Shown: positions 13,561 through 53,712 of the stretch, one piece after another
Layout: the number at the start of each line of letters is the position of its first letter
How positions within the stretch are numbered: position 1 is the stretch's first letter
Assembly (NCBI GenBank): GCA_945288535.1
Contig: CALYQQ010000017.1
Location: 1,733 to 65,732 of the forward strand
DNA from: an uncultured Enterobacterales bacterium
GTDB lineage: Bacteria > Pseudomonadota > Gammaproteobacteria > Enterobacterales > CALYQQ01
DNA length: 64,000 bases
Direction: 5' to 3'
Position numbers and translations under genes: made by a program
Notes under the pieces: model-generated
The model's database searches: none
What the model was told of the DNA's origin: nothing
Seen by the model: the letters and a program-made list of their open reading frames with translations, nothing else

Positions 13561-14207
13561 TGTATGTTTTTTGGCTTGATATATTAGGCACTATAGTATT
13601 CGCTATATCAGGTGTTTTATTAGCTGGTAAACTACGTATGGATGTATTTGGCGTACTTGTACTCGGTGTTGTTACTGCCATTGGTGGGGGAACATTTCGC
13701 GATATGGCATTAAATAATGGCCCTGTATTTTGGATAAAGGATCCTACTGATTTAGTCGTCGCATTGTTAACGTGTGTTGCAACAATCATTTTTGTCCGAC
13801 AACCAAAAAGATTGCCTAGCTGGATATTACCTGTATTAGATGCAATCGGTTTGGCGGTATTTGTTGGTATTGGAATAAATAAAGCATTTGCTTGTCATAC
13901 TGGTGCGTTAGTTGCCGTTTGTATGGGGGTATTAACCGGCATTGGTGGTGGCATTATTCGCGACATGCTGGCCCGGCAGATCCCTTTGATTTTATGTACC
14001 GAAATATATGCCACAGCCTGTATTATCGGTGGAGCAGTACATGCAATTAGCCATTATTATTGGGGGGTGCCATTAGAAAAAGCAATGCTAATTGGTATGG
14101 CTATTACATTAGTTATTCGCCTAGTAGCAATACGCTGGGATCTTAGGCTACCGGCATTTACACTTAATTCAGATAACAACCACTCGCTATCCAATCATCA
14201 GCGCTAA
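13560..14207 (+). CDS. yadS: UPF0126 (TRIC-like) inner membrane protein YadS
   Basis: MYVFWLDILGTIVFAISGVLLAGKLRMDVFGVLVLGVVTAIGGGTFRDM and a second GGGIIRDML repeat. Near-identical pattern to E. coli YadS. The start overlaps the btuF stop. Confidence 0.87.
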   Translation: MYVFWLDILGTIVFAISGVLLAGKLRMDVFGVLVLGVVTAIGGGTFRDMALNNGPVFWIKDPTDLVVALLTCVATIIFVRQPKRLPSWILPVLDAIGLAVFVGIGINKAFACHTGALVAVCMGVLTGIGGGIIRDMLARQIPLILCTEIYATACIIGGAVHAISHYYWGVPLEKAMLIGMAITLVIRLVAIRWDLRLPAFTLNSDNNHSLSNHQR

Positions 14208-14275
14208 TTTATTAATAAATAACCGACAGTAAATAAATTTAACGAAGAAACTATCAAAACTGTCGGTTATGACAA

Positions 14276-14614
14276 CTAAATACTAAACGAAGAACCACAA
14301 CCACATGTATTTTTAGCATTAGGATTATTCACGATAAACCGAGAACCTTCTAATCCTTCCGTATAATCAACGGTTCCACCGATTAAATACTGTAAACTCA
14401 TAGGATCAACCACTAAAGAAACTCCATGCTTTTCAATACGTGTATCACCTTCATTTATTTTTTCATCAAATGTAAAACCATACTGAAAACCGCTACATCC
14501 ACCACCTGTAATATAGACACGTAGCATTAAATTAGGATTCTCTTCATCAGCAATTAACGCCTTCACTTTATTAGCCGCAGCATCGGTAAATTGTAAAGGC
14601 AATATGTCACTCAT
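14276..14614 (-). CDS. erpA: Iron-sulfur cluster insertion protein ErpA (A-type carrier)
   Basis: [49 protein letters not shown]. The start is taken at MSD (14614), not the ORF-track start at 14626. Confidence 0.95.
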
Positions 14615-15078
14615 AATGTGCTCCAATGAAAAATAATGATTATATGATAAGTTAATTACTTATATATCATATAAAAATTATCGATAATACCAAAATAATA
14701 AACTATAAACCGTTCCAGCATATTAGAAGTGCCTGTTAACGCGACTAAAGCCAAATTACGTACTTTGGGTAGCAAGAACAGTTAATTAAATATCCTTATA
14801 ATAATTAGCATTATCTAATACCTGACTAACACATTCAAGTCTTGGATAGTACTCTCCGAGATAACCTCTATAGTAATAATGTATAAGTTATAACATGATG
14901 ATTAACATCATTATTTACTATTTATAAATGCTATTACTTGATGAGGTTATTATTTTTTATTTAATGATCATTTTAAATATGTGTTTATCATCATTATGAT
15001 ATTCATTTATATTACACTAGTTATTTGCATGACTAACAGATTAAGCATAAGGGTATTACTTTGGATCAGGAATTAATT

Positions 15079-16359
15079 ATGAATCATTCACAACACCTAT
15101 ATAAGCAAGCTCAAAATACGATCCCTGGCGGCGTTAACTCTCCTGTAAGAGCCTTTTCTGGTGTGGGTGGAACACCTGTATTTATTGAGCGCGCGGATGG
15201 TGCTTACCTTTATGATGTTGATGGTAATAGATATATTGATTATGTGGGATCATGGGGACCGATGATCCTAGGCCACAATGATAATAAAATAAAAAAGGCG
15301 GTAATAGAGGCTATTGAAAATGGTTTAAGTTTTGGTGCCCCAACAGAAATAGAAGTAAAAATTGCCAATCTTATTGTTGAATTAATACCTTCTATAGATA
15401 AGGTCCGCATGGTCAATTCTGGCACAGAAGCTACGATGAGTGCCATACGTCTTGCTAGAGGCTTTACCGGGCGTGATAAAATTATTAAATTTGAAGGATG
15501 TTATCATGGCCATGCTGATTGCCTATTAGTGAAAGCTGGTTCAGGTGCATTAACGTTTGGTCAACCCAACTCTCCTGGTGTTCCTGCTGATTTCGCTAAG
15601 CATACACTAACTTGCGCTTATAACGATTTAAACTCCGTTAAAACGACATTTGAACAATATCCTGAACAAATAGCGTGTATTATTGTGGAACCTGTTGCGG
15701 GTAACATGAATTGTATTCCTCCAATGGAGGGGTTTTTACAAGGATTACGTCACTTATGCGATCAATATGGTGCTTTACTTATTATTGATGAAGTTATGAC
15801 AGGGTTTCGTGTTGCTTTAGGTGGCGCGCAATCTTATTACCAGGTTACCCCGGATTTAACTTGTTTAGGAAAAATTATTGGTGGCGGAATGCCTGTTGGT
15901 GCCTTTGGTGGTCGTAAAGAGATTATGGATAAACTTGCGCCTGAAGGTCCTATTTATCAAGCGGGTACATTATCTGGAAATCCTATCGCTATGGCAGCGG
16001 GTTATGCTTGTCTAACTCAATTAACCGATGTTAGCTCGTATCAAAAGCTTAATGCATTAACAACTGAATTAACAACTGGCTTACAACAAGTTGCATTAGA
16101 AAAAAATATTCCGTTGGTAACTAATCAAGTCGGAGGAATGTTTGGACTCTTTTTTACAGACGCCAAACAGGTAAATCATTATCATGATGTGATGCAATGT
16201 GATATTGAACGATTTAAACGTTTCTTTCATTTAATGCTAGAACAAGGTATTTATTTTGCCCCTTCTGCTTTTGAAGCAGGCTTTATGTCGCTTGCGCATA
16301 CCCGTGATGATATCCAACATACGATTGATGCCGCAAGATATAGCTTCTCCAAACTTTAA
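15079..16359 (+). CDS. hemL: Glutamate-1-semialdehyde 2,1-aminomutase
   Basis: [32 protein letters not shown] and [12 protein letters not shown] at 15079 with AGGAA 7 nt upstream; the ORF-track TTG at 15061 is probably too long. Confidence 0.95.
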
Positions 16360-16383
16360 TAAATTTAAATTTACATAATAACT

Positions 16384-16414
16384 AAAAACCAAGAACGGAT
16401 TGTTCTCGGTTTTT
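16384..16414 (+). terminator. Rho-independent terminator after hemL
   Basis: AAAAACCAAGAAC-GGATT-GTTCTCGGTTTTT hairpin with one mismatch, 25 nt after the hemL stop. Confidence 0.55.
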
Positions 16415-16658
16415 AGTTTATGTTCTATAACAATAATACTTTGTCTAAGTCTAATAAATAATAGCTTTTATAGCATTATATCTATATAAATAATTTTTAT
16501 TATCATTTATATAAAATTCTTGTTATTGTGCTATAAAATACCGTAGTTTGTTAAAATAAATAACATATTAGCAAATAACTTAATTCTATTTTTAGAATAG
16601 TAATCAAATAATAACTATTTTTTGATTTGCTTTTTTATTACCATGATGGTTTTATTTA

Positions 16659-17012
16659 TTAGCTACGACTTACCAAACATACATCAAAATGCAAGTTATC
16701 TTTCATTATTTTTACCACATTTTGAAAAGCATAATTAATAGAGGATAAGTCACCGCTTACAATGACGGTACCACTATTTCTATCAACAAAATCTACAGAA
16801 ATAACCCCTGACTTAATTGCGAGATCACTTGCTATAATAGCCGCTTCAGCAGGTATTATATTAATAATACCAAGTGATTGTTCATCTTCATTAAGACCTA
16901 ATTTTTTATAGGTTTCACGATCTGGTCTGGCAATAATGTGCGCTAACGTAATACATCGACTAGAATGAGTTTGTCTAATCGCATGTTCTGATTGAATGAC
17001 TTCATTTAACAT
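16659..17012 (-). CDS. pduU: Circularly permuted BMC shell protein, PduU/EutS-like
   Basis: CITLAHIIARPDRETYKKLGL..LGIINIIPAEAAIIASDLAIKSG..VDFVDRNSGTVIVSGDLSSINYA aligns along its length with remembered PduU/EutS (VTLAHLIA.P...KKLG...IGI..P.E..IA.D.A.K...F.DR.SG). ATG at 17012 has AGGA 6 nt upstream. The ORF-track GTG at 17036 adds 8 codons. Confidence 0.8.
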   Translation of the reverse strand: MLNEVIQSEHAIRQTHSSRCITLAHIIARPDRETYKKLGLNEDEQSLGIINIIPAEAAIIASDLAIKSGVISVDFVDRNSGTVIVSGDLSSINYAFQNVVKIMKDNLHFDVCLVSRS

Positions 17013-17294
17013 AATTAATCCTGTTTTTCTAATCACTACATAATACTAATAAAATTAACTTTCGCTATAATATTACCTAAATTTTTATTTTATTTTTCTT
17101 AATAAGAATATTACTTTACCTTATGTTGTCTTAGTATTATCAAAAGATAAATTCAACTGTAGGTAAATAGTTAAATTATGCATTACGTTTTATATGAAAT
17201 AATTATAATAATTAATTACTTGATATAATGTGCGATAAATCTATCTAAATAACAATTCAAAATATGAAGAAATTTAAAATTATTACAAATAGTT

Positions 17295-17801
17295 TTATCG
17301 ATTTGATAACCTGATAATAGTAATATTATTTTGCTTTAATACATCCATTGCTAATGGGGTGATTATTGTATCATTCGTTATTAATAAATAATCACCCTGT
17401 AATGTACAACATTTATGATAAGAAAGTAATGGGTCGGTAAAGAAAAATAGTATCTTACCCGCATGATCTTTAAATTTTACAGGCAATTGACTGAGTAAAT
17501 TATAAGGTAGTTGTTCTAACTTATTTATATCAGTAACTAGCGTTACTTCAACCGCAAATGATAATGCTTGATAGAAAGCATTTACCGCAGGATCGCTAAT
17601 ATCAGCCAAACAAAGTTTTGATAAAAAATCCACGGTTGAAACAATGAGTTGCATATGACCATATATAAGCCAAGATGAATCTGTCACCATTATTAATTGT
17701 GACTGAGCAATATGTAATGTGGTTTGTTGTCGTTGATGAAGCCGTTCTATGATTTTCTGTGTCACCTTAGACAACATATTATTTATATTTTTATCATCCA
17801 T
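17295..17801 (-). CDS. PduM-like microcompartment structural protein (tentative)
   Basis: 168 aa, close to the roughly 163 aa I recall for PduM. It sits between the PduD-like and PduU-like genes, as in the pdu operon order. It has an amphipathic N-terminus (MLSKVTQKIIERLHQR), and its C-terminal LLSY...TLQG..L......IITPLA.DVLKQNNITIIR resembles my recollection of Salmonella PduM. No clear SD upstream. Confidence 0.45.
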   Translation of the reverse strand: MDDKNINNMLSKVTQKIIERLHQRQQTTLHIAQSQLIMVTDSSWLIYGHMQLIVSTVDFLSKLCLADISDPAVNAFYQALSFAVEVTLVTDINKLEQLPYNLLSQLPVKFKDHAGKILFFFTDPLLSYHKCCTLQGDYLLITNDTIITPLAMDVLKQNNITIIRLSNR

Positions 17802-17901
17802 TTATAATTGCGAATATTTGCTTAATCAATTTTAGGAGCCATAAAAGAATTTGTATTTATTATCTTTTAAGTATAGTTCTACCTAAATAAACTATAAAAA
17901 T

Positions 17902-18720
17902 TCAAATGTTATATTGGCTATTATTTGCAATGTCATCCTCATAGTTTTTCCTAAAGGATAATTCATAAGGGTCTTCACCTTCAATTAAAGCATTTTGTTC
18001 TGCTTGATAAAATCGCATTAATTCTTGTTGATAAGGTATGCTAGTGTAGTGGTTCGATGTAAAATAAAGTGGTTCACTACATTGCCGAGTGAGATATTGT
18101 GCGGCATGATTACCTATTTGGCGAAAACGCAGTGGTATCATTAAAGCTATATCTGCAAATATTTCTATTACACTATATTCATTTGGTCGCTGTAAATGAA
18201 GTAGTATTGAACCAGTGGATTGTATGGTAATCACTGATCCAGAACCACTTAAATTTCGAGCTTTATTAGCAATCGATAATAAATTAACATGATCACAAAC
18301 ACGAACAAGCCGGTAATCTATTTTTTGTAATTCAAGGCCCAGAATAAGTTCTTTTAAAATTTGACGATGTGGAATACCAAATAGAGAATGTTTTATTTGA
18401 CTGGCAAATGCAGGACTCACAGCAATAATAATTTCATTTTTATTATTAACATATTGTGCCATTCCTTTATAAATTAAGTCATTTTTTAAATAGTTATCTT
18501 TAATAGGTGTAGATAATGCAGAAGGCATTATTTTATTATGCTTAACGGCTGCAATATTATCTTTTTTTATGATTTTATTGTTCTCATTATAGTTTACACA
18601 GGATAATGATAATTCGGACTGTTGTTCTTTTATATTAGCAGAGAGTACTGCTAACTCATTGGGCATATCATCAAGTACTGACTTAATTAATTCTTTTAAA
18701 AGTTTTTCATTAATTGTCAT
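17902..18720 (-). CDS. pduD: Diol/glycerol dehydratase medium (beta) subunit-like protein with N-terminal encapsulation peptide, PduD-like
   Basis: The N-terminus MTINEKLLKELIKSVLDDM compares with the Salmonella PduD targeting peptide MEINEKLLRQIIEDVLRDM. The core EIIIAVSPAF..GIPHRQILKELILGLE..RLVRV..NLSGSGSVITIQSTGS..RFRQIGNHAAQY matches the dehydratase beta-subunit pattern (VIIAVGPAF..LSGSG..IQSKG..YRQIGKNAARY). Confidence 0.8.
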   Translation of the reverse strand: MTINEKLLKELIKSVLDDMPNELAVLSANIKEQQSELSLSCVNYNENNKIIKKDNIAAVKHNKIMPSALSTPIKDNYLKNDLIYKGMAQYVNNKNEIIIAVSPAFASQIKHSLFGIPHRQILKELILGLELQKIDYRLVRVCDHVNLLSIANKARNLSGSGSVITIQSTGSILLHLQRPNEYSVIEIFADIALMIPLRFRQIGNHAAQYLTRQCSEPLYFTSNHYTSIPYQQELMRFYQAEQNALIEGEDPYELSFRKNYEDDIANNSQYNI

Positions 18721-18796
18721 GAATAGCTCTTCTTTTTGTCCTAAACAACATATTTTTACCTAAAATCAAAAGATAATTATGTTATAACATTACTTA

Positions 18797-19606
18797 TTAT
18801 GTTTCTGATACGAACAAATGCCCACGTATTAACGCCCCTTGTTGTCGAATATAATCCATCGCATAACGAATTTCATTAATTCCACCACTAATAACTAACT
18901 TACCTGAATTAATTGAATGGTGATGATTTAAAGGCAAATCACAATGATTAATCGTAACGGGATATAAGTTAGTAAGCTGATTAAATAGAAATAAAGCAAG
19001 TGCTGCTGGCGCAACATTAATTATAGCGCAAGCTGCATTTGTTGGTATTTGATACTGTTTTTTTAGTAACTCACCTGCCATACTGCAATATTGCCACTCC
19101 ATATACCCAACATCAAAATAATACGTTGTTTTTGATCGTTGTGTTATGTCAGTGAGAATATGTTGTATAACATTTTCAAGTTCAGATAAGTTATTAGAGG
19201 CTAATATTGTCAAAGCTGCATAGCCTATCTGGCTAAATGGATCTTTTGGTTGAGAAAAATGTAATAAATGGCAGTTTGCATGTCTAATACCCTGATCAAC
19301 TGCCATAAGGTGGCCAAAAATATGCTGTGTAGAACTAATAATTCCTATTGATTGCTCATTATTATTAGATGTGATAAAAGACAAAAGATGTGGACTAACG
19401 CGAGGAATCATTAAACCTATACTATGATGCGAAGAAGCATTAACAATAGTAGGCATACTTTCATTAGATAAGAAGAGTGACTGAAGAGACGTTGGACATT
19501 CTCTTAATGATGAAGCAATACTGTTTTTCTCTTTTTCTAATGATTGTTCTTGTAAAGAAGCAAGTACTTTTGCCATAAGTTGATCGACGAGTTGCTCAGA
19601 TACCAT
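18797..19606 (-). CDS. pduB: Tandem-domain BMC shell protein (BMC-T), PduB-like, highly diverged
   Basis: 269 aa, against roughly 270 aa for PduB. Matches to remembered PduB: MVSEQLVDQLMAKVLASL vs MSSNELVEQIMAQVIARV; SIGIISSTQHIFGHLMAVDQGIRHAN vs SIGILGARTGAGPHIMAADEAVKATN; GYMEWQYCSMAGELLKKQYQIPTNAACAIINVAPA vs GHIELQYTARASYALEKAFGAPIGRACGIIVGAPA; KLVISGGINEIRYA vs ILVISGDSGAVRQA. The start overlaps the PduA-like stop (ATGGTATCTGA). Confidence 0.75.
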   Translation of the reverse strand: MVSEQLVDQLMAKVLASLQEQSLEKEKNSIASSLRECPTSLQSLFLSNESMPTIVNASSHHSIGLMIPRVSPHLLSFITSNNNEQSIGIISSTQHIFGHLMAVDQGIRHANCHLLHFSQPKDPFSQIGYAALTILASNNLSELENVIQHILTDITQRSKTTYYFDVGYMEWQYCSMAGELLKKQYQIPTNAACAIINVAPAALALFLFNQLTNLYPVTINHCDLPLNHHHSINSGKLVISGGINEIRYAMDYIRQQGALIRGHLFVSET

Positions 19607-19895
19607 TTTGCAACCCTTCTAATAAATGCTTTTCAAGATCGGCATGCAAACGGGGAATAACATGCACTGATGTTACTTTTCCTAAGGTAGCAGCAGCGAC
19701 AGCACCTGCATCAGTTGCTTCTTTGACTGAACCAATATCACCGCAAATAATGACAGTAACAATACCAGATCCACTATGTTTATACCCCACTAAGGTCACA
19801 TTAGCTGTTTGTAACATTATATTTGCAGCTTCAATAGCACTAATTAATCCTTTTGTTTCAATAAACCCAAAAGCACTTTTATGTATTGTCTTCAT
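19596..19895 (-). CDS. pduA: BMC-H hexameric shell protein, PduA/PduJ/EutM-like
   Basis: FGFIETKGLISAIEAANIMLQTANVTLVGYKHSGSGIVTVIICGDIGSVKEATDAGAVAAATLGKVTSVHVIPRLH is a canonical BMC (PF00936-type) domain very close to PduA. GAGG SD 4 nt before the ATG. Confidence 0.9.
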   Translation of the reverse strand: MKTIHKSAFGFIETKGLISAIEAANIMLQTANVTLVGYKHSGSGIVTVIICGDIGSVKEATDAGAVAAATLGKVTSVHVIPRLHADLEKHLLEGLQNGI

Positions 19896-20420
19896 ATTAC
19901 CTCAAGCAAACTAAACATTACTAAATGACATAAATAAATGACGTTATAGAATGAATATATTCAGATATGAGCAGCGTTATTATTAATAAAAAATGTGTGT
20001 TTATTGAGCTATTTATCTGTTTTCAATTAGTAACAAAAATATAAGTCTGAAAAGATAATAATGATTTATTTAATTAATGACATTATTCTAAAATAAGATA
20101 CGCTAAATACTCCTTGTTATACAATAGATAATCTACAATAAAAATGAAATAAAGTATAATTTACTGTTTTTATTGATAACGATAATAAAATAACTCTAAT
20201 TTTAAAAAGCCCTAAAGATAATTTCTATTTGTCATTATTAATAATAATAAAATTCGTATAGATTAAACAATTAGCATTTTTTATTATAGTTAATTTTCAC
20301 TAATAATGTAATGAATTGTTATATAAGTTCTTCTATAATTTACAATATAAAGGGAACTTTTTATTAATAACTAATTCCAATAATGAATTCATAATTAAAG
20401 TTATAAAGGACACAACTCGC

Positions 20421-21558: not shown

Positions 21559-23892
21559 TTATCGTTCATTGCCAAACATTTCAACAACCCACTCTGGCGT
21601 ATCTTCAACGGGCTCTGGTGTTGATGTCGTATTAACATTATGCATTTGCATTGCACAAAAAGCATCAGGATCACTGATCATTGCAGGCAAATTCCGTTTA
21701 GCTTGACCACAGAAAAAATTTCCCTCACTATCAAGTGCCATCATATTGATACCTTCTGGTGGAACTAAATTTAAAGGTAGAAGGGATTGATTTTCTATAT
21801 AATGCCTGAAAAGTTGTAATGCGCCTTGCGAACCTGTTAAACGCGTAGGCTCATTATCATCACGTCCAGTCCAAGCAATTGTTACTTCTTTACCATCAAT
21901 ACCGACAAACCAACTATCGCGTAAATCATTTGTTGTCCCCGTCTTAGCTGCTAAATTATATTGACTGAATCTGTTTTGCAAAGAATGGGCTGTTCCGCGT
22001 ACCACCACTTGCTGCATTGAATAAAGGATCTGATAACTGGCTTGTGGTGATACTACCAGCTGTGATTTAGGGAAGCTTTCATAAAGTACTTGCCCATTCT
22101 CAGCAATAATTGAGCGTAATGCTGATAAAGTAGCGCGATGACCACCACTAGCAATTGTTTGATATACTTGTGCTAATTCAAATGGCGTAAGGCTTGTTGA
22201 ACCGAGTAACATTGCAGGCACTTTCTGGATATATTGACTATCTACCCCTAAACGGATCATAATCTTTTTTATTTCATCGAGACCAACATCTAATCCTAAA
22301 TTCACTGTTGGAATATTTAGTGAATTTGTTAATGCATCAATAAGCATCACACGACCACGAAATCTACGATCATAATTGCGTGGTTGCCAATTGGTTTTAT
22401 TTGATAGTGTAATTGTTAATGGTTCATCAGGTAACCATGAATTAAGTTGATATTGTTCTGGCTTACTTAATGCAGCCAAGTAGATCGGTGGTTTTGCTAA
22501 AGATCCTATTGGTCGACGGCCATATAATGCACGATTGAAACCCGCATATTGTGGCTGTGAGCCACCAACAATGGCCCGTATTTCACCACTAAATCGGTCA
22601 ACAATAACCATTGCACCTTCCAGTTCAGGAATTTTATATTGTTGTCTTAACTTACTGACTTCTAATTCAACGGCATTTTCTGCTTCTTTTTGTGATACAG
22701 GATCTAACGTAGTGAAAATCTTAACACCCGATAAGTTTTTCACTTGTTCACCTAGAACATCATATAATTCTTTAAGGACTTGTTGTATAAATGCAGGTTG
22801 TGGCGTAATGATGGTCTTAAGATCACGTAAACCGAGCGGTTGACTAATCGCTAATAGATACTGATCATGACTAATGTCTTGTTGTTCATACAATAAACGT
22901 AATACTAAATTACGTCTTTCCGTAACAAGCTCAGGATTACGCCAGGGATTATATAGCGAAGCACCTTTTACCATACCTACTAGCATTGCTTGCTGTGCTA
23001 ACGTCAATTCATTAACTGGCCGCCCAAAATAATGAATGCTCGCAAACGGAAATCCCCTAATCTGTTCGCCTCCCCTACCACCTTTACCATTTTGCCCAAG
23101 ATAAACTTCGTTAAGATAAAGTTCTAATATACGTTCTTTGCTATAATGGTAGTCCATCACTAATGCCATAAGTGCTTCCCTAGCCTTTCGCGTAAAAGAA
23201 CGTTCATTTGTAAGAAATAAGTTTTTGACGAGTTGTTGGGTCAACGTACTGCCACCCTGAACAGTTTGTCCTGCCTGAAGGTTAGCCCTAAATGCACGCG
23301 CGATCGCAAATAAATTAATACCATCATGCTGAAAAAAATGACGATCTTCTGTTGCTAATAATGCTTTAATCAAACTATTGGGAAATTTATTTATTCCAAT
23401 AAATAAACGTTGTTCTCCGTTAGGCGATTGCAACATAGTAATGAGTTTAGGATCAAGGCGAAAAAAACCAAACTCACGCTGATTTGCCATGTTAATAATA
23501 CGTACTAGTCGATCATTACTAAAAATTAATTTGGCGTGAATTTCACCTTCATGTTTATCCGGAAAATCAAACGAACGACGAATCAGTTCTATTGAATTAC
23601 CTTGAATAGCATATTCTCCTGCGCGTCTAGGAACGAGTACTTTACGGTATTGTGTCGCATTTAGTAAAACAGTTATCTCTTTTTGTGAATAGAGCATACC
23701 TGGTTCAAGATTAATCATTCGCCCGTACATAGCTGCAGGAAGTTCCCATACCTGCCCATCAATTCGTTGTTTAATCTTGGAGTCAAGATAAATACAGTAC
23801 AATGACAAAATGGCAAATAAAACAATCCCTAATTTAATTATAAAAAAATAAAAGGGTTTAAAACTAAACTTAGATTTTGCTTTACGCGCCAT
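21559..23892 (-). CDS. mrcB: Penicillin-binding protein 1B (bifunctional glycosyltransferase/transpeptidase)
   Basis: 777 aa with an N-terminal TM anchor and a UB2H-like region. It has the GT51 motifs EDRHFFQHDG and GGSTLTQQLVKN, plus the TP motifs SLAKP, SLN and KTGTT. Confidence 0.93.
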   Translation of the reverse strand: MARKAKSKFSFKPFYFFIIKLGIVLFAILSLYCIYLDSKIKQRIDGQVWELPAAMYGRMINLEPGMLYSQKEITVLLNATQYRKVLVPRRAGEYAIQGNSIELIRRSFDFPDKHEGEIHAKLIFSNDRLVRIINMANQREFGFFRLDPKLITMLQSPNGEQRLFIGINKFPNSLIKALLATEDRHFFQHDGINLFAIARAFRANLQAGQTVQGGSTLTQQLVKNLFLTNERSFTRKAREALMALVMDYHYSKERILELYLNEVYLGQNGKGGRGGEQIRGFPFASIHYFGRPVNELTLAQQAMLVGMVKGASLYNPWRNPELVTERRNLVLRLLYEQQDISHDQYLLAISQPLGLRDLKTIITPQPAFIQQVLKELYDVLGEQVKNLSGVKIFTTLDPVSQKEAENAVELEVSKLRQQYKIPELEGAMVIVDRFSGEIRAIVGGSQPQYAGFNRALYGRRPIGSLAKPPIYLAALSKPEQYQLNSWLPDEPLTITLSNKTNWQPRNYDRRFRGRVMLIDALTNSLNIPTVNLGLDVGLDEIKKIMIRLGVDSQYIQKVPAMLLGSTSLTPFELAQVYQTIASGGHRATLSALRSIIAENGQVLYESFPKSQLVVSPQASYQILYSMQQVVVRGTAHSLQNRFSQYNLAAKTGTTNDLRDSWFVGIDGKEVTIAWTGRDDNEPTRLTGSQGALQLFRHYIENQSLLPLNLVPPEGINMMALDSEGNFFCGQAKRNLPAMISDPDAFCAMQMHNVNTTSTPEPVEDTPEWVVEMFGNER

Positions 23893-24198: not shown

Positions 24199-25902
24199 TT
24201 AGTTAAGACTGTATTTTTTAGTTTTACGTGTTGGCAAACTGTTTTGAGGATCGTCAGGCTAAAAATGTTTAGGATAACGCCCTTTCATTTCTTTTTGAAC
24301 GTCACGATAACTCCTTTGCCAAAAATTAGCTAAATCACTTGTAATGTGTAATACCCTATTCGCAGGTGACAACAACTCAATAATGACCGTTATTTTATCT
24401 TGCGCAATTTTTGGATTCTCTTGTTCACCAAACAATTCTTGTATACGTGCAGAAATCATAGGGGGCTGTTCAGTATGGTAATTAATTGGTACTTGATTGC
24501 CTGTCGGTAAACGATAATGTGTTGGTAACCAACGATCAAGTTGTTGTATCTGCTGCCAATTCATTAAGCGCTTTAATGCATTGGTAATATTAATCTGTTT
24601 TAATGATTTTATATCTTGAATATTATCTAAATCAGGCAATAACCATACATCTAAATGAGCTAATAACGCATCTTCATCTACTGATGGCCAGTCAAACTCT
24701 GTAAACCATTGCTTTGCACATATCAAACGTGTGCATAATTGACTGGCACTAGTCGTCCAGTCTAATTGTCCGATCCCTTGTTGACGTAACCATCCCATTA
24801 GTGCTTGACGAAACTCATCTTGTGACGGTTTATTAACAGTTTGTTCATTTAATACAATGTGACCAATTTGCTTACGACGAACGGAACGCAATGTACCTGG
24901 TTTTTCTAACCATTGAATGGTCATTACATCAGATAACAATGTCGGGAAATGGTCAATTATTAATGCTGGTTCACAGGCTATGGCTAATAAAATACGGGGT
25001 TGTAAAGCATTACTTGGTTGCAATAAATGAGTAACAATTAAATAAGATGTACCATACAAGCTATCTCGCTGATCTAACTCGACACCACTACCGTTAGCTA
25101 AAAGATAACGATTAGTGATATTACGTTTAGCGGCAATACGATCAGGAAAAGCGACGGCTAATAATATAGATAATAAACTAGAATCAACAATCGTTTTTTC
25201 AATATGCTCTCGCTGACGTAATTGCTCAGCGCGATGTAACCACGCTTTATTGGGTTGGTTAAACAAAATAAAAATATCACTATTCCCCGTATAATGGGGA
25301 GGGTGTTCAAGTATTGCTACAAGTCGTGCTGCAGTATTAAAGGCAATAGCGCCTTTCTTTTGTCCATATAATAACATAGCGGCTAATCTTGGTTCTGTCC
25401 CAAAACGAGCCATTTTTTTTCCTGCTAAGGTTAATTGTCCTTGGTTATCAATTGCACCTAATAAATGCAATAACTGTTTAGCTGCTTGTAATGCAGCTTT
25501 TGGTGGTATTGTTAGCCATGATAATTGGGTAATGTCATGACATCCCTATAATAATAAATTGAAGTAGCATCCAGATAGATCACTATAGGTTATTTCCGGT
25601 TCACGCTGCGCAACTGAACGTTCCGCCTGTTCTTTTGTTAACAGATGCCAACAAACACCTGGCATAATACGACCTGCACGCCCTGCACGTTGTGTCATAG
25701 ATGCTCGACTAATACGTTGAGTGACTAACCGAATTTTACCCGTTATCCAAGGTAATTTAAGCAATTGCAAAGGTAACCATGTCGATTTACCTGCACCTGG
25801 CGGGGCTAATAGCAGTAATTGATTATGATGTAGTAATCCAACTGTAAGGGTTGTTAATACCTCTACAATAGGTAGACTCAATGCGACACTCCAATACCTC
25901 AT
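24199..25902 (-). pseudogene. hrpB: ATP-dependent RNA helicase HrpB, inactivated (in-frame internal deletion plus two amber codons)
   Basis: A single reading frame. N-terminal LLLAPPGAGKSTWLPLQLL..GKI is fused directly to RLVTQRISRASMTQRAGRAGR (motif VI), so motifs Ia to V including DEAH are missing. TAG at 25546-25548 sits where E. coli has Gln, and TAG at 24259-24261 where E. coli has Trp (..GRYPKHF*PDDPQNSLPTRKTKKYS). The total of 568 codons compares with about 809 in E. coli. Confidence 0.85.
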
Positions 25903-26148: not shown

Positions 26149-26853
26149 ATTATTCAATTCGAATCATCGTTACAACTTGCTCAATTGCTTAGGCGTTATA
26201 AGCGTTTTTTAGCTGATGCTATTATGCAAGACGGCTCAATTATAACACTCCATTGCGCCAATATAGTGCTATAACTGGCTGTGCGATACCTGATGATACT
26301 ATTTGGTTTTCGCTATCTAGCAATCAAAAACGAAAATACCCTTATAGTTGGCAAACTACATAAACATCATATGGTGATATGATTTGTGTCAATACTCATA
26401 TAGCTAATTATTTAGTTAAAGAAGCTATAGAAAAAATATTATTAGCGAATTATGTGGTTATCAGCAGATCTGTTCAGATGTCTGTTATGGGTAAGAAAAG
26501 AGTCAAGTTGATTTGGTTCTGGAAGATGACAGTCGCTCGGCTTGTTTTATTGAAGTAAAATCAGTCACACTTGCAGAAAAGGATAAAGGGTATTTTCCTG
26601 ATAGCATTACAGAACGCGGATATAAACATTTAGAGAACTTAACTATATGAGACAACAAGGTTATCGAGCCGTACTTTGTTTTGTTGTTTTACATAGTAAC
26701 ATTCAGCATATTTCTATAGCAGAACATATTGATATAATCTATGCACTATTGTTAGAAAAAGCATTAGAAATAGGTATTGAAGTGATTTGTTATAAAACGA
26801 TAATCTCCACTCAAACGATACAAATTTGCCATTCGTTACCCTTTATAAGGTAA
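26149..26853 (+). pseudogene. sfsA: Sugar fermentation stimulation protein SfsA, degraded
   Basis: Homology to SfsA runs through all three frames. The pieces are ..[25 protein letters not shown], then [39 protein letters not shown], then [42 protein letters not shown], then QGYRAVLCFVVLHSNIQHIS..HID. There are at least 3 frameshifts, several in-frame stops and no ATG at the expected start (ATT ATT CAA). Confidence 0.8.
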
Positions 26854-27274: not shown

Positions 27275-27730
27275 ATGCAGGAAGGTAAAAAAAGTAAAGC
27301 GACTTCCTTAAGCATTCTCGCCATTGCTGGGGTTGAACCTTACCAGGTGAAAGCTGGTGAAGAGTATATGAACCCTAAGCAACTGGAGCATTTCAGGTTA
27401 ATACTTGAAGCCTGGCGAAACCAGTTGAGGACAGAGGTTGATAGAACAGTTTCTCATATGCAAGACGAAGCAGCTAACTTCCCGGATCCGGCAGATCGGG
27501 CAACACAGGAAGAAGAGTTTAGCCTTGAATTACGCAATAGAGATCGGGAACGAAAACTTATTAAAAAAATTGAACGTACTTTACAAAAAATTGAAAGTGA
27601 AGACTTTGGTTTTTGTGAATCATGTGGAATAGAGATTGGTATTCGTCGTCTTGAAGCACGTCCTACGGCTGATTTATGTATTGATTGTAAAACGTTGGCG
27701 GAAATTCGTGAAAAACAGATGGCTGGATAG
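27275..27730 (+). CDS. dksA: RNA polymerase-binding transcription factor DksA
   Basis: [24 protein letters not shown]...[63 protein letters not shown]. Nearly identical to E. coli DksA. AGGAG SD before ATG 27275. Confidence 0.96.
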
Positions 27731-27792
27731 CGATTATCAACTAATAATACAAAAAATTAATAAATAATGTACCACCGTTAACTAGCATAAAT

Positions 27793-27836
27793 GCCGTGTA
27801 ATATTTCCTTTGAGTCATTTTACACGGCTTATTTGT
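27793..27836 (+). terminator. Possible terminator after dksA
   Basis: 9-bp stem GCCGTGTAA / TTACACGGC with an 18-nt loop, followed by a TTATTTGTT T-rich tail. Confidence 0.45.
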
Positions 27837-27899
27837 TATCATGTGTTAGCTTTTTTATTAATATGATGTACTCACAAAAATTATTCAATTAACATGGTT

Positions 27900-28450
27900 T
27901 AATTGCATGGTATGACGTACGTTGTAGCTTTATTCATTAACTATTTTTATTTTGTAATAATCATTACAGCAATACAACGACCCTTTAGATAAAAGTGTTT
28001 AAAGAAAAATACATTAGTACTATAGATGATCTTATTATATCCACGCAATTGATCATAAAAAATTCACTTTATGTGCTCGGGTTGTTAGTCGATTACACAT
28101 ACTGCCTAGGACACAAGATTACCCATATAACGGTAAAGATTTAAGTTAATCTATAATATATGACTCGAGATTGTAATAGTGTGTATAATGTTTTATCACA
28201 CGGCTTAATTGATTACCATTAACAAGACTATTAGACTGAAACAATGCTATTTATTCATTTACTGATAAGTTAATCGTATTCTTATGCCTATGACCAGTGA
28301 TAACAGAGAAAAAGGAGAGTTATAGTGAGTAAAATAAACGCTATTTTTAAACTTTATCGATTCTTATGTGCTGTTGTCACAAAATATCATAAATATGGTA
28401 TAAGGGTGTTCTTTACAAAGATAATCGTTAAACACAATTTGTGATATTCA
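27900..28450 (+). pseudogene. gluQ: Glutamyl-Q tRNA(Asp) synthetase (GluQRS/YadB) relic, heavily degraded
   Basis: Position between dksA and pcnB, as in E. coli. Recognisable fragments in different frames with stops: WYDVRCSFIH (compare R.D.Y..A...L), DLIISTQLIIKNSLYVLGLLVDY..KITHITVKI (compare [28 protein letters not shown]) and IVSKINA (compare KLSKQNHA). Confidence 0.4.
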
Positions 28451-28843
28451 TCTATTTGTGAATAACTATTATCATGTTTAATACAGTAATGTATCGACAC
28501 TGTTTGAGAGCATAACTATTCAATGAAAGATACTATTTCCATGCTATATAACTCATTGATTACTATAAGTGACTTCCTTATTAACGTGCTTTTCTGCTAA
28601 ATTATGTACATAAATTAGCAATATTTAATATAATTGGATAAGCTAATTTGATTATAACAATTAATCAACCGAATAAATGGGACTATAAGAGATGACAAGG
28701 ATTGATTAGTAGTTATCAAAATGAGTAAAATTAAGCTATGATAAAGAAAGGATCCTACACTGCTGTAACAATGCAATATATTTATCTATCAATGAAGTTG
28801 GTACATTGACTAAAATAAAATAAATTATATTAAGAGGTGTATT

Positions 28844-30250
28844 ATTTTTACCCATATTGCACATTTGTATCGTAAAGTTTTTAAAACAAAGCGCAAAAAT
28901 ATAAAATCTGAACAGCAACTGAAAAATATTACCATTATCCCTAGAGATAAACATATCATCTCGCGCAAAAATATCAGTGATAGTGCATTAAAAGTACTTT
29001 ATCGTTTGCAACGTTCGGGATATGACGCGTATTTAGTCGGTGGTGGCGTACGTGATTTGTTATTAGGTTTAAAACCAAAAGATTTTGACATTGTCACGAA
29101 TGCAACACCAGAGCAAATTCGTCGATTATTTCGCAATTGTCGTTTAGTTGGACGCCGTTTCCGCTTAGCGCATATTATTTTTGGTAAAGAAATCATTGAA
29201 GTGGCAACATTTCGTGGTGAGCATAGTGATGATCATGATAAAAATCAGTCACAGCAATCCAATAAAGGTTTATTATTACGAGATAACGTATATGGTACCA
29301 TTGAACAAGATGCATTACGCCGTGATTTCACTATAAACAGTCTTTATTATAATAGCGCTGATTTTTCAGTACGTGACTATACTGATGGTTTACATGATTT
29401 ACAAAATGGTATTATTCGACTTATCGGTGATGCGGAAAAACGCTACCGTGAAGATCCGGTTCGGATGTTACGTGCTGTGCGTTTTGTCGCTAAGCTTAAT
29501 ATGACACTGGATCCTCAAACAGAAGAGCCTATTCGTCGGCTTGCTGAGCTTTTGCAAAGTATACCTGCCCCGCGCCTATTTGAAGAAACACTTAAATTAT
29601 TACAGAGTGGTCAGGGATATCAATCTTATCAATTATTACGAAAATATCATCTTTTTGAACAATTACTCCCTATTATTAGTCGTTATTTCACACCGGAAAG
29701 CGATAGCAATATGGAGTATTTGCTTGTAAATATATTAAAAAATACCGATCAACGTATTACGCAACAAAAACGTGTTAATCCTGCCTTCTTATTTGCGAGC
29801 ATGCTATGGCATCCTTTACTAGAGCAAGCGGAAAAACTGGCACAAGAAGGAGGATTGTCTTATAACGATGCATTTTTACTGGCAATGAATGATGTTTTAG
29901 ATGAAGCATGTCTGCGTTTAGCAATCCCTAAACGGATCACAACTGTCATGCGCGAGATTTGGCAACTTCAGTCAAGATTATTGAAACGGGATGGACGCCG
30001 TGCATACCGCTTACTTGAGCATCCAAAATTCCGTGCGGGATTTGATTTACTTAGTTTACGTGCTGAAATTGAAGGGGGTGAATTAGCCCGAATCACGCAA
30101 TGGTGGGATAACTTTCAAAAAGCTAATCATGATCAACAGAAAGCATTGATAACAGAGGTAGCAAGTAAACATAATCGCCATCATCGTCATCGTAAATCTC
30201 GTCAGATGAAAAAACGTTTTTATACCCATTCCGATAGTAACATAAAATAA
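28844..30250 (+). CDS. pcnB: Poly(A) polymerase I, probably initiated at ATT
   Basis: [53 protein letters not shown] and so on. AAGAGG (28832-28837) lies 6 nt before ATT 28844. Translation from there, (M)[15 protein letters not shown], parallels E. coli MFTRVANFCRKVLSRE, which is known to start at AUU. The ORF-track TTG at 28865 is an alternative. Confidence 0.9.
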
Positions 30251-42498: not shown

Positions 42499-45400
42499 AT
42501 GAAAAAAAATAGAAGTTATCCTTTTTTATTACTTCTATCTTATTTTAAATATTATGTACTTCTTAGTTTTTTTTATATTTATCCGATGACTACTTTAGCT
42601 TCTACTTTTAATGAACCCATCAATGAAGATAATTGGCAATCTTTTCTTGATACTCAAAGTGATAAAATTAATATAGCTAAAGATGGCCAAAATATATCCG
42701 CTATTTATATTAATCCAATAAAACCTGAAGATCTATTTAAAAAAAAGTTATATACCTATTCCTTGATGCAAGCTAAAGAAATATATATAACTAATAATTC
42801 TCATGAACCAAATAATCAAACTTTCGCCATTCAACTTGTTCCTCAATTAAATTTAGGTGATGAACAACAAATTGATACTACATTAAATCATGTCGAAGTC
42901 ATTCTGCCAAATAACACCAAAATAAATAGTTATGCACAACAGGGACAGGCAATAGGAATTCAAGCTGGATTAAGTTTTCAATTTTATCGTTCGAAAGAGA
43001 TTGAAGCTAATATTGGTTTTGGACAATTACTGACGTTAGGCACAAATAACCAATTATCAGTTAAAAATCAGCAAGGAAAAGCCACAGCACTCGATATATT
43101 TACGCTGGTTCAATTTAATGAAAATTTGCCCGATACGCAACCCGCAATTATTTATAGCGATATTAGTACAGATAATGTAATAATGATAGGCGAAAAAAGT
43201 AGGATTACTGCCGACGCATTTGCACAAGCAACAGGAATTAATATAAATAATCAAATTGATACTTTAAAATCTATTCCAGTTATGAATAGAACAATGCATC
43301 ATCCTGCGGCATCTAATTTGGTCATAGGAAATAACGCTATCATAAGGGCAACATCCATAGCAAATGATGCCATTGCTATTCAAAGTAAAACACTACTTAA
43401 CTACAAAGAATCAACCTCTATTCTTAGTTCTCCATTTCCAAGATTGCAAAATATAAGACAAAAATCAATCTTACATATTGGTGAAAATACCCAAATTGAA
43501 GCTAATGCAATACAAGGAAGTGCGGCAGGTATCGCATTTGGTAATGCTCAAATGTATTATGGTAATGATATTGCTGGTCTTGATTTTAGCATTAGTAAAA
43601 ACAGTTATTTATCACAAATAACGACTCAGCAAAATGTAAAAATTAATGTTGATGCCAAGCAGCAAGCTATTGGTATACTACTCATAGATGATTTTAATAA
43701 TAAAGAAAGCATTTCGGACCGATTTGGTGATCAGGTATCTAGTGAGGTTATACTTGAACTTGGTGAGAAAAATCAAATAGATGTGCGTACTTTACAACAA
43801 ACCAGCTATGCTGTTCAATTAATAAATAAAAGCTATATCCTGCCTAAAACTTCGGAATATGAATATCAAGGAACATCTTCGATCTCTGCAAAAATTGGTG
43901 AGTCTAATCAGCTTGTTAGTCAATCTGAGCATGGTAAGAGTTATGGATTATATATAAATAACGAAGCGACATTAATACCTATAGACGCTCTGGAAATGAA
44001 ACGCTTGGCAATAATTAATACGACATTAGCAAATAATGTCGCAATAACCAGCCGAGGGTATCAGCAGGCTTATGGTGTTTATATGAATATTGAAAATTAC
44101 CAATTAGTGCCTGAGAATCAATACCGTTTGGCAACGACACTTAATCTAGAAGGCGATCTAGACGTTTATTCATTTGCCACTGATAATAAGGAAACTTATG
44201 CCTTTTATCTTAGAGGCCATAATACCACGTTGGTATCAAATAACCCTGGTCGTTATCGCTTTATTGGACAAATTGTCGCTAATGATAATGCATTAATTGA
44301 TCTTCATGCGACCTCTGATTCAACAATGCTAAGTGATTTAATCGCTAATCATGCCACTATTAAAATGACTATGGCAGAAAACGCACATTTAATTGGTAGC
44401 GCCAACTATAACGCGCATAGTTTACTAAATTTAAGCTTACGTGATCAAGCTACGTGGTTAATGACTCGTGATTCAGCACTTTCATTGTTGGATATTCAAG
44501 ATCAGGTTAACATCTATCTTAGCCAACATCATGTAGGTTATAACACATCATCACAATCTAATATATTTAATAAACTCACAGTAAACTCACTTAATGGTAG
44601 GGGTAATATATGGATGAATGCTGATTTAGATAATGCTAATAAAGATCTCTCCGCCATTGATGAAACAACAACATTTAAAGATTTTTTATATGTTACCGAA
44701 CACCTAAATGGCAATTATGTTATAACCATGCCAAATCAAGCTAATTATCAGGGAGATGCTGATAATATTGTGTTAATTCGCTCAGATGATATTGCCAGTG
44801 ATGGCACCTTTCTCATGGCAAATGGTGCTGAATTTGGTGGCTATATTTATAATTTAAAGAAAATAACACGATCCGCTTCTGAGTGTCACAATAATCGTGG
44901 TTGCCATTATTGGGCACTCTCTTCCCATAAAAAACCATCAACAACTGTACGCGCTACCGTAAATTCTATTAACGCTGGATATTTGCTTACCTATGCTGAA
45001 ACGCAAACAAATTTGCAACGGTTTGGTCAGTTGCATAATAACAAACATTATCAAGGCGATATTTGGTTTCATAGCTTCGCTGGAGGAATAAATGCCTTTG
45101 ATGCATCCCCTATGTTAGAAGAGTCTCGTTTAAAATATCGTGGTTTTCAATTGGGTGCCGATAAACAAGTTCACCAAACGAATAATGTACAATATATCGG
45201 TACGCTTGCTGGTCTTTCCACTGCCGATCTATATTATAAACTTGGGGAGGGTTCACTAAGAAACTGGCATTTTGGTTTTTATGATACATTATTATTTAAT
45301 AATCAGATTTATATTGATATATTAACGAAATATACTCAAATGACACATCATTATCAAGTTGATGATTCTCTTGGTAATAAAGTTAATGGTAAAGTACATA

Positions 45401-45870
45401 CACGTGGTGTAGTAGGTGCAATGAGTATAGGTAAACAAATTCATTTTTATGATTATACATCTATCGCCAGAATAGACGGATTTTATTTTGAACCACAAGC
45501 ACAGTTTAATATTGCTTATAATGATCCCTCCTCTTATCGCGCTTCCAATGGATTAAAAATAGCTGTTGATGACTATCTCTCAACCTTAGGTAAACTTTCT
45601 ATAACGTTAGGTTATCATAAAGAAAATCGTGTGACGCCAACATATGGCTACATTACATTTTCCTATCTTAATGAAATGAGTGCGAAAACCGATTTTACTT
45701 TTAATGATCGTCGCCATCGTCAAAAATTTACTGGAACATGGTATATCTTAGCTATCGGTATGCATACTGAAATCTATAAGCGAAATACACTCTATATTGA
45801 TTTACAGCGATCTGAAGGTAATCGTTTTAACCATCATCAAATTAATGCTGGCTATCGACTACGTTTTTAA
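42499..45870 (+). CDS. Type Va autotransporter (large beta-helical passenger plus C-terminal beta-barrel)
   Basis: 1123 aa with a hydrophobic N-terminal signal region. The passenger is long, Asn/Ile/Gln-rich and degenerately repetitive. The C-terminal roughly 280 aa have alternating-hydrophobic beta strands ending ..INAGYRLRF (terminal aromatic OMP signature), preceded by the linker LQRFGQL. AGGGGG SD upstream. Confidence 0.75.
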   Translation: MKKNRSYPFLLLLSYFKYYVLLSFFYIYPMTTLASTFNEPINEDNWQSFLDTQSDKINIAKDGQNISAIYINPIKPEDLFKKKLYTYSLMQAKEIYITNNSHEPNNQTFAIQLVPQLNLGDEQQIDTTLNHVEVILPNNTKINSYAQQGQAIGIQAGLSFQFYRSKEIEANIGFGQLLTLGTNNQLSVKNQQGKATALDIFTLVQFNENLPDTQPAIIYSDISTDNVIMIGEKSRITADAFAQATGININNQIDTLKSIPVMNRTMHHPAASNLVIGNNAIIRATSIANDAIAIQSKTLLNYKESTSILSSPFPRLQNIRQKSILHIGENTQIEANAIQGSAAGIAFGNAQMYYGNDIAGLDFSISKNSYLSQITTQQNVKINVDAKQQAIGILLIDDFNNKESISDRFGDQVSSEVILELGEKNQIDVRTLQQTSYAVQLINKSYILPKTSEYEYQGTSSISAKIGESNQLVSQSEHGKSYGLYINNEATLIPIDALEMKRLAIINTTLANNVAITSRGYQQAYGVYMNIENYQLVPENQYRLATTLNLEGDLDVYSFATDNKETYAFYLRGHNTTLVSNNPGRYRFIGQIVANDNALIDLHATSDSTMLSDLIANHATIKMTMAENAHLIGSANYNAHSLLNLSLRDQATWLMTRDSALSLLDIQDQVNIYLSQHHVGYNTSSQSNIFNKLTVNSLNGRGNIWMNADLDNANKDLSAIDETTTFKDFLYVTEHLNGNYVITMPNQANYQGDADNIVLIRSDDIASDGTFLMANGAEFGGYIYNLKKITRSASECHNNRGCHYWALSSHKKPSTTVRATVNSINAGYLLTYAETQTNLQRFGQLHNNKHYQGDIWFHSFAGGINAFDASPMLEESRLKYRGFQLGADKQVHQTNNVQYIGTLAGLSTADLYYKLGEGSLRNWHFGFYDTLLFNNQIYIDILTKYTQMTHHYQVDDSLGNKVNGKVHTRGVVGAMSIGKQIHFYDYTSIARIDGFYFEPQAQFNIAYNDPSSYRASNGLKIAVDDYLSTLGKLSITLGYHKENRVTPTYGYITFSYLNEMSAKTDFTFNDRRHRQKFTGTWYILAIGMHTEIYKRNTLYIDLQRSEGNRFNHHQINAGYRLRF

Positions 45871-53303: not shown

Positions 53304-53361
53304 TTAATAGTCTATAGAGAAACAATACATAATATAACTGCAAGGAAGCACTCTATACTAA

Positions 53362-53405
53362 TATTGACTATCACTCGACTTAAAATTGCCGAGTGATAGT
53401 CAATA
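53362..53405. repeat. Perfect 16-bp inverted repeat (hairpin) downstream of dauA
   Basis: TATTGACTATCACTCG (53362-53377), a 12-nt loop, then CGAGTGATAGTCAATA (53390-53405). No T-run follows. Confidence 0.8.
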
Positions 53406-53712
53406 ATGGTGATATTAATAAAGTCAAATAAACTGAATACGTTATTTAGCTATATAATAAAACACTCTTGCTGTTTACCCGTAAATATTTCTCTGTCATT
53501 TATTCAAACTACTTTCCAAAAAAATAGCGATGGCAGATATAGAAATTATCAATATTTCTACCCATTTACTTAAGATAAGACAATACTATAAGTTGGTTCT
53601 CTATTCTTATATAATCACATATACATTATAGGAATAAAGAAAACAGAGCAATTAACAAAATTACTCTGAATAAGCCAAAATACGCGTTATTATTCGTTTA
53701 TATATACTACGG

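Follow-up and report, generated by a model that had tools for sequence, protein, structure and literature searches.

A pdu-like cluster of shell and linker genes without its enzyme genes, maintained under purifying selection in uncultured Enterobacterales

In the canonical PDU1 operon of Salmonella and Citrobacter, pduABCDEGHJKLMNOPQSTUVWX, the genes of a bacterial microcompartment (BMC) follow one another on one strand, pduA and pduB overlap translationally, and PduD, PduB and PduM bear signal helices. A PDU main locus is defined by the PduCDE signature enzyme, a core aldehyde dehydrogenase, and a minimum of one BMC-H plus one BMC-P (Axen 2014; Sutter 2021), and loci in which shell genes without BMC-P are accompanied by other BMC-related genes have been termed satellite-like (Axen 2014, PMC4207490). 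The cluster considered here lies in 64,000 nucleotides of an uncultured Enterobacterales bacterium (assembly GCA_945288535.1, contig CALYQQ010000017.1; this whole stretch is called the window), where five minus-strand open reading frames (ORFs), all uninterrupted, fill positions 16659-19895. It shares the order, single strand, A/B overlap and D, B and M signal helices of PDU1, and differs from it in missing the PduC/E signature enzyme and the rest, in protein identities of 26-57%, and in that four of its five products score below family cut-offs. Of the signature enzyme only PduD is represented, and neither an aldehyde dehydrogenase nor a PF03319 (BMC-P) protein is encoded anywhere in the 64 kb, cluster included. 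This stripped-down cluster probably still builds something, and the reading developed below, to which about an even chance is given, is that it is a domesticated, enzyme-free structural remnant of a Pdu operon, with products that assemble together in a role unrelated to 1,2-propanediol catabolism. Its features and neighbors, in window coordinates, are these.

19596 to 19895, minus strand: PduA-like BMC-H shell protein, 99 amino acids (PF00936, PduA structure 3ngk)
18797 to 19606, minus strand: PduB-like tandem-BMC (BMC-T) shell protein, 269 amino acids (NCBIfam PduB model, EtuB and PduB structures)
18721 to 18796: 76-bp spacer at the canonical pduC position, with no PduC similarity by tblastn
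17902 to 18720, minus strand: PduD-like protein, 272 amino acids (PF02288, 1dio_B, Foldseek)
17802 to 17901: 100-bp spacer at the pduE-G-H-J-K-L position, where a pduK-like gene persists in the more distant relative L031
17295 to 17801, minus strand: PduM-like protein, 168 amino acids (PF15953, TIGR04493)
17013 to 17294: 282-bp AT-rich non-coding spacer at the pduN-O-P-Q-S-T position (four-lineage alignment, Rfam, tblastn)
16659 to 17012, minus strand: PduU/EutS-like circularly permuted BMC-H, 117 amino acids (PduU structure 3cgi, EutS model)
19896 to 20420: intergenic region shared with the divergent DUF2884 gene, presumed from its position only to hold the cluster promoter
15079 to 16359, plus strand: hemL, convergent with the pduU-like gene and the cluster's anchor in every lineage including L031
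20421 to 21113, plus strand: DUF2884/YggN-like gene, divergent from the cluster
21559 to 23892, minus strand: mrcB, beyond the DUF2884 gene

A search of 5.8 billion proteins with the PduD-like protein revealed just four close clusters. Three of them, L001, L002 and L003, are on contigs from three Logan runs and belong to uncultured Enterobacterales; the fourth, L030, is an ENA contig (ERZ9515132) that is 99.97% identical to the window. L030 has three differences from the window in 9839 bp (at 12299, 17098 and 18041), one in mtnN, one in the spacer between the PduM- and PduU-like genes and one synonymous in the PduD-like gene, and is evidently the same strain or species, sampled independently. 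In all four the five genes lie between hemL and DUF2884-mrcB, so that the hemL-mrcB interval, singled out for comparison in a preliminary description of the window, does hold the same five genes in L001, L002 and L003. Word-indexed searches with the PduD-like and PduM-like proteins yielded nothing beyond this clade, a PduD-like profile scan of GTDB representative genomes yielded no relative, and a scan of the same representatives for the mrcB pattern gave only Photobacterium at no more than 50% identity. The mrcB protein itself is 60-64% identical to those of named genera. The matches in a plasmid collection were all to canonical genes (pdu, eut and grp), with 25-32% identity between proteins.

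Between the window and its relatives hemL is 86% and mrcB 84% identical, and the five proteins are 52-74% identical between the window and the three lineages, with synonymous divergence (dS) of about 1 or more and thus saturated. The ratio of nonsynonymous to synonymous divergence (dN/dS), computed with our own NG86 implementation and 1000 codon bootstraps, was for L001 versus L003, where dS is an unsaturated 0.2-0.6, 0.11 for A, 0.18 for B, 0.26 for D, 0.27 for M and 0.12 for U, with 0.10 for hemL. When the window is compared with L001, a pair with dS above 1 in four cluster genes and at 0.97 in pduM, the values are 0.11, 0.29, 0.25, 0.29 and 0.09, respectively, next to 0.07 for hemL and 0.06 for mrcB. 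The bootstrap 95% upper limits are at or below 0.45 for all five genes (pduA-like 0.11, confidence interval 0.05-0.22). About 2.8 kb of coding sequence is free of stops and frameshifts in the window, L001 and L003, and the gene order, spacing and pduA/pduB overlap are kept as a unit in every lineage. Continued selection, which the preliminary description had argued from the length of the open frames, is thereby upheld on independent grounds (dN/dS 0.09-0.29, the presence of the cluster in L001-L003 and an older version of it in L031). As to the frame lengths themselves, a random 269-codon frame has a chance of about 2e-9 of staying open at the local base composition.

The genome of the window is not one in which idle genes are spared. 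Its hrpB (24214-25881) has lost approximately residues 57-300, with a 403-amino-acid ORF remaining, its sfsA (26185-26844) is split over three reading frames, and the expected gluQ site (27730-28865) has no ORF of 120 amino acids or more, while all three genes are intact in L001 and L002. It looks like a gene-shedding, possibly host-restricted member of the Enterobacterales, with 34.7% GC. With the non-essential neighbors hrpB and sfsA turned into pseudogenes here but not in those two relatives, the time elapsed has been long enough for genes without selection to break down, and five open frames in a genome that loses such genes are not a passive leftover.

The order of the five genes is collinear with the Salmonella pdu operon, as had been proposed from the letters of the window, and the gaps of 76 and 100 bp at the pduC and pduE-L positions are confirmed; L001 and L031 have 68-96 bp at the former position. 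One start has had to be moved. The PduU-like gene had been given a GTG at 17036, and alignment of orthologues places the start at an ATG at 17012 that is common to L001-L003 and L030, giving a product of 117 amino acids; the gap estimated at about 280 bp for pduN-T then comes to 282 bp (17013-17294). The PduB-like ORF overlaps the stop of the pduA-like gene by 11 nt, in accord with the stop-start junction seen earlier, and the Shine-Dalgarno-like motifs that had been counted at four of five ORFs are upstream of A, B, D and U, none being seen upstream of the PduM-like ORF. The genes had been considered more AT-rich than their neighbors: at 30.5-37.3% GC they are so only slightly with respect to hemL and mrcB (38-39.5%), and they are close to the window mean.

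The extent of the loss is apparent from tblastn of the whole 64 kb with every available Salmonella Pdu protein (PduG as a partial fragment) plus PduF and PocR. The only matches are A, B, D, M and U, and so the earlier statement that the enzymes and the other Pdu genes are gone holds for the 64 kb, from which PduC/E, the reactivase, PduL, PduP, PduQ, PduO/S, PduJ/K/T, PduN, PduV/W/X, PduF and PocR are all absent by this measure. The contigs of L001-L003 and L031 likewise contain neither PduC nor PduE. A weak PduD match at 53318-53491 (E 0.003), where there is no ORF, was put down to chance, and apart from the cluster the window encodes ordinary housekeeping functions. Neither tblastn nor the four-lineage alignment detected remnants of lost pdu genes in the spacers, and no coding signal is present across that alignment in the spacer between the PduM- and PduU-like genes. 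Scans in and around the cluster, including this spacer, gave zero matches to Rfam, and a PADLOC scan for anti-phage defence in and around the cluster also gave zero.

All five assignments are supported at the profile level, including the BMC and PduD ones on which the preliminary description had staked its case. Identity to the Salmonella proteins is 57% for A, 26% for B, 29% for D, 29% for M and 37% for U, and with respect to NCBIfam equivalog or subfamily cut-offs A, B, D and U score far below and the PduM-like protein above. The PduA-like protein is a single BMC domain (PF00936, 1.5e-22, 79.8 bits against a cut-off of 24.5) whose best solved-structure match is PduA 3ngk (2.5e-30). Its PduB-like partner has no Pfam BMC match; it aligns over its full length with the NCBIfam PduB model NF011944 (1e-26, 93.7 bits against 173), reaches 81 bits against a cut-off of 310 with TIGR04501, and matches the solved structures of EtuB (3io0, 5e-14) and PduB (4fay, 3e-11), and a single-sequence AlphaFold 2 model of it has a mean pLDDT of 38. 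The PduU-like protein matches PduU 3cgi over residues 12-116 (3e-25), PF00936, the EutS subfamily model (3e-18) and, at 66 bits under a cut-off of 123, NF012012. The identification of PduM, put forward only tentatively before, can now be made with TIGR04493 (97.9 bits, cut-off 50) and PF15953 (4e-24, 85.6 bits, cut-off 27), the score with the narrower PRK15428 being 95.7 bits, under its cut-off of 179; there is no match to solved structures, and PduM is itself without one.

The PduD-like protein matches PF02288 (Dehydratase_MU; 47.7 bits, cut-off 27) and diol dehydratase beta 1dio_B (1.6e-25), with its N-terminus aligning to MEINEKLLRQIIEDVLSEM. Its layout in the AlphaFold 2 model is a short helix at residues 1-19, a disordered linker at about 20-90 and a diol-dehydratase beta-subunit fold at about 96-255; the core is modelled with pLDDT 72-90, and the disordered stretch of about 70 residues exceeds that of Salmonella. 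The top Foldseek matches of the core are diol and glycerol dehydratase beta subunits (E 3e-11, TM 0.68 on the target). There are nevertheless signs that its enzyme role is gone, namely the 29% identity, a score of 126.7 bits with NF011616, where the cut-off is 248 (L031 PduD has 237), the lack of pduC and pduE alongside, and a change at residue beta-135. This residue is T in the window and L031 and S in L001-L003, as against K in Salmonella and K. oxytoca and R in three Firmicutes PduDs; K or R here is presumably a contact to the cobalamin phosphate, a role for which the papers searched gave no confirmation.

What has been kept is best appreciated from the N-termini. In Salmonella residues 1-37 of PduB attach the shell to the enzyme core, mainly via PduM, which in turn is a probable binder of the PduD N-terminus (PMC9132943). 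There is experimental evidence of signal sequences for the enzymes PduD, PduP and PduL and for the structural proteins PduM (1-23) and PduB (1-22) (PMC12108088). The PduD-like encapsulation peptide, MTINEKLLKELIKSVLDDM compared to MEINEKLLRQIIEDVLRDM, is identical at 12 of 19 positions, so that identity to Salmonella is 63% over residues 1-19 and 29% over the remainder; in the PduB-like protein it is 50% over residues 1-18 and 25% over the remainder. The signal helices of these two proteins thus have about twice the conservation of their remaining sequence, and the hydrophobic helix positions are all kept, relative to Salmonella, in the N-termini of D, B and M. By analogy with the roles established in Salmonella (PMC9132943, PMC12108088), the amphipathic helix of the PduB-like protein would link shell to core, and the retained set would amount to shell tiles (A, B and U) plus a complete shell-to-core chain (B N-terminus, M and D N-terminus).

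The age of the enzyme loss can be approached through a relative found by exhaustive HMMER with a PduM-like profile against 1.84 billion representatives. Fifty representatives were found in total: the single one of the window clade at 344 bits, then after a wide gap P0131 at 93 bits, followed by canonical PduMs. P0131 is on L031 (Logan SRR31913104, 42.7% GC), where the order is pduA, pduB, pduD, a pduK-like gene (349 amino acids), pduM, pduU, and then convergent hemL and erpA; this contig has no pduC, E, G, H, J, L, N, O, P, Q, S or T. L031 has the same hemL anchor and orientation and the same missing enzymes as the window clade and shares with it derived PduD features, GIPHRQIL for G(I/L)PHKSIL and T/S at beta-135. 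It differs in keeping the PduK-like gene, near-canonical shell proteins and the facet motifs KSAN and PRPH: identity to Salmonella is 88% for A, 63% for B, 61% for U, 49% for D, 56% for the BMC domain of K and 31% for M, and its PduB is above the equivalog cut-off. The hemL genes of L031 and the window clade share 79% identity. The PduK-like protein of L031 (8082-9131) has 349 amino acids compared with 160 in Salmonella, and consists of a BMC domain, a probably disordered and highly acidic linker some 200 residues long, and, at the C-terminus, a CxxC...C...CC motif similar to PduK's metal-cluster motif.

The shared hemL site, missing genes and derived PduD residues imply that the enzymes were lost before the split of L031 from the window clade, with pduK lost later in the window clade. 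As read from the genes there is a reduction series, from the canonical operon to six genes (L031), to five, and to decay (L002). The nearest named PduM homologues are in Sodalis sp. dw_96, Yersinia, Phytobacter/Citrobacter and Vibrio maritimus, and since the nearest are from Enterobacterales the origin is taken to be an Enterobacterales-type pdu operon. In the outgroups L025 and L026, where hemL is beside mrcB, and L028, where it is not, there are no pdu-like genes next to mrcB; L025 and L026 are at a hemL distance similar to that of L031, and their hemL identities are compatible with loss, later insertion or a different branching order. A scan of metagenome contigs with PduD, which serves as a control set, gave 80 loci, all canonical and of 28-33% identity, and pduC and pduE were beside pduD in 58 of the 58 with enough flanking sequence. 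In the scans covered here enzyme-free versions are seen only in the window clade and L031.

An independent early decay of pdu is seen in L029, the host-adapted Salmonella Abortusequi (CP075030.1, approximately 14100-17450), where a stop codon interrupts pduD early (QQD*VIIAV), pduG is cut short and both lack a gene annotation; here the enzymes are breaking first.

Formally the cluster belongs to the satellite-like class, having PF00936 without PF03319 plus PduD- and PduM-like genes, and being structurally incomplete by definition. The earlier statement that no locus type of this composition has been described therefore stands for the exact composition and not for the class (PMC4207490): no description of this composition, or of an enzyme-less pdu remnant, was found in the literature, and composition and evolutionary history are new to the literature searched. 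The cluster differs from satellite-like loci in being a collinear deletion derivative with a linkage chain, at one site, deeply divergent and under purifying selection. Could it function as a satellite, supplementing a complete pdu, eut or glycyl-radical BMC elsewhere in the genome, or could pduC and pduE have relocated with the PduD-like protein still active? This is unlikely, though it has to be taken seriously, as loci with BMC-H and BMC-T and no BMC-P are a recognised category normally dependent on a main locus (PMC4207490, PMC8217296), and the contigs inspected span 64 kb for the window genome and 9-18 kb for each relative. Moreover, the closest named PduM relative is in a complete metabolosome locus, the GRM4-type locus of Sodalis sp. 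dw_96 (L112, GCA_018449575.1), so that such loci exist in related taxa. Its order is A, B, glycyl-radical enzyme, activase, MIP channel, two BMC genes, PduL, PduM, vertex protein, aldehyde dehydrogenase, alcohol dehydrogenase and PocR, and it illustrates that the shell and linker parts of a pdu system can persist after another enzyme has taken the place of PduCDE (PMC8217296). However, canonical order with scars of 76-282 bp exactly at the positions of the enzymes points to deletion rather than relocation, and the PduD-like protein, 29% identical, below cut-off and without K or R at beta-135, stands alone, whereas canonical pduD was beside pduC and pduE in every informative control locus. Gene shedding in the window genome lowers the odds that it holds a second large BMC operon, and no description was found of a satellite with a PduB, PduM, PduD linkage chain of its own.

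A different possibility is that each of the five genes has acquired an individual, unrelated function, with for instance the PduD-like protein binding a small molecule or cobamide and the BMC proteins serving as scaffolds. The altered facet motifs of the PduA-like protein favor this, and so does L002, where the numbers of nonsynonymous and synonymous changes (N:S) of pduB (24:25) and pduU (6:14) still look constrained though pduM is dead, a hint that the five are not all interdependent. Yet the conservation of order, spacing and pduA/pduB overlap as a unit in every lineage, and the fact that the best-conserved parts of the PduD-like and PduB-like proteins are helices known only for protein-protein targeting within BMCs, render separate moonlighting improbable. 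Cobamide binding in particular is made less likely by the loss of the positive residue at beta-135, the presumed contact to the cobalamin phosphate.

Least probable of all is that the cluster is a non-functional relic, a dead operon eroding slowly with frames only transiently open: pseudogenised pduM and drifting pduA in L002, scores below NCBIfam cut-offs for all but PduM, AT-rich genes and a visible reduction series from canonical through six and five genes to decay are in its favor, but it has to contend with independent comparisons in which dN/dS, narrowly bounded by the bootstraps, falls well short of 1, with intact frames in the window, L001 and L003 despite dS of about 1 or more, with the decay of hrpB and sfsA over the same period, with signal helices about twice as conserved as the rest of the proteins, and with the persistence of enzyme-free versions across 79% hemL identity.

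If the cluster is a domesticated structural remnant, its working may be envisaged as follows. An Enterobacterales-type pdu operon next to hemL would have lost all of its catalytic, cofactor-recycling and vertex genes while keeping three shell tiles (the PduA-like BMC-H, the PduB-like BMC-T and the PduU-like permuted BMC-H) and the counterparts of two Salmonella shell-to-core proteins, PduM and, through its N-terminal encapsulation peptide, PduD. The five genes would be expressed as one unit, and the shell proteins would tile into sheets, tubes or irregular bodies instead of closed icosahedra; open tubes or sheets are favored over closed polyhedra because no pentamer is encoded at the cluster. 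Pdu shell proteins assemble on their own without enzymes, and without the PduN vertex protein they form elongated tubes. Engineered empty Pdu shells use PduJ, PduK and PduN, whereas the present cluster is natural and, without J, K and N, has PduD and PduM. The N-terminal helix of the PduB-like protein, the PduM-like protein and the helix and linker of the PduD-like protein may form an enzyme-free ‘core’ on the tiles, and the assembly would serve a structural, scaffolding or sequestering role that is dispensable in some hosts. More specifically, the product might be a non-metabolic protein body (a tube, a sheet or a condensate-filled shell) made from Pdu tiles and the PduB-PduM-PduD chain in a probably host-associated lineage, a tentative suggestion with somewhat less than an even chance of being right.

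The changed PduA-like protein argues for an altered architecture. Basal BMC-H proteins carry KAAN together with (P/A)RPH as facet motifs (PMC8217296), and Salmonella, like L031, has KSAN and PRPH. In the window, L001, L002 and L003 QTAN stands at the K(A/S)AN site and PRLH at the PRPH site.

Several points weigh against the proposal of a domesticated, co-assembling remnant. The sole BMC-H of the abundant type lacks the conserved facet lysine and may not tile canonically. The dN/dS values of B, D and M (0.18-0.29) are 3-4 times those of hemL and mrcB, which means moderate constraint. Promoter and terminator matches in the cluster region were no commoner than in shuffled sequence. A BMC-P gene, pduC and pduE or another BMC locus could lie outside the contigs covered, and whereas homology, collinearity, conservation and selection are observed, co-expression, co-assembly, morphology and cellular role are inferred from the genes. 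Finally, one lineage, L002, is losing the cluster. Its pduM-like gene is a pseudogene, with the start ATG changed to ATC, frameshifts and stops, and its pduA-like gene has a lineage-specific N:S of 15:5, where the sister lineages have 9:15 (Fisher p = 0.017). The corresponding figures for the pduD-like gene, 41:20 versus 24:21, are not significant (p = 0.16), and the N:S of the pduB-like (24:25) and pduU-like (6:14) genes and of hemL (11:49) look unchanged, so that relaxation in L002 is significant for pduA only. The operon decay that the preliminary description gave as its alternative is thus real in L002, where it is late and lineage-specific, and is not seen in the other lineages; likewise, the frameshifted versions in relatives that it named as a ground for refutation are confined to the broken pduM of L002, the genes being intact in L001 and L003. 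With pduM lost and pduA drifting there, the module must be dispensable in some settings, and the changes at most hint at a dependence of A and D on M.

Of the surroundings, the DUF2884/YggN-like gene encodes a signal-peptide-like N-terminus and has dN/dS of 0.15-0.18, like the cluster genes; it is beside the cluster in L001, L002 and L030 and is not at that position in L031, L025, L026 or L028. Farther away in the window is a gene for an autotransporter of 1123 amino acids (42499-45870, plus strand) with a beta-barrel domain at residues 688-1123, and beside it are two adjacent ORFs of 340 and 244 amino acids (46144-47897, minus strand) with no NCBIfam match at E <= 1e-10.

BMCs are understood as enzyme containers, and a version that is enzyme-free and yet selected would show that the shell-and-linker architecture is valuable alone. 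If a non-metabolic body is indeed built from these parts, nature would here provide, for the first time, an example of BMC architecture retained for some use besides housing a pathway, as well as a natural minimal set for shell-to-core assembly. The field has yet to settle how shell attaches to core, and on this the cluster offers a natural experiment with the PduB helix, PduM and the PduD peptide, while the reduction series supplies successive stages in which dependences among the parts can be examined. The cluster is also a candidate for a minimal, naturally optimised scaffold for engineering.

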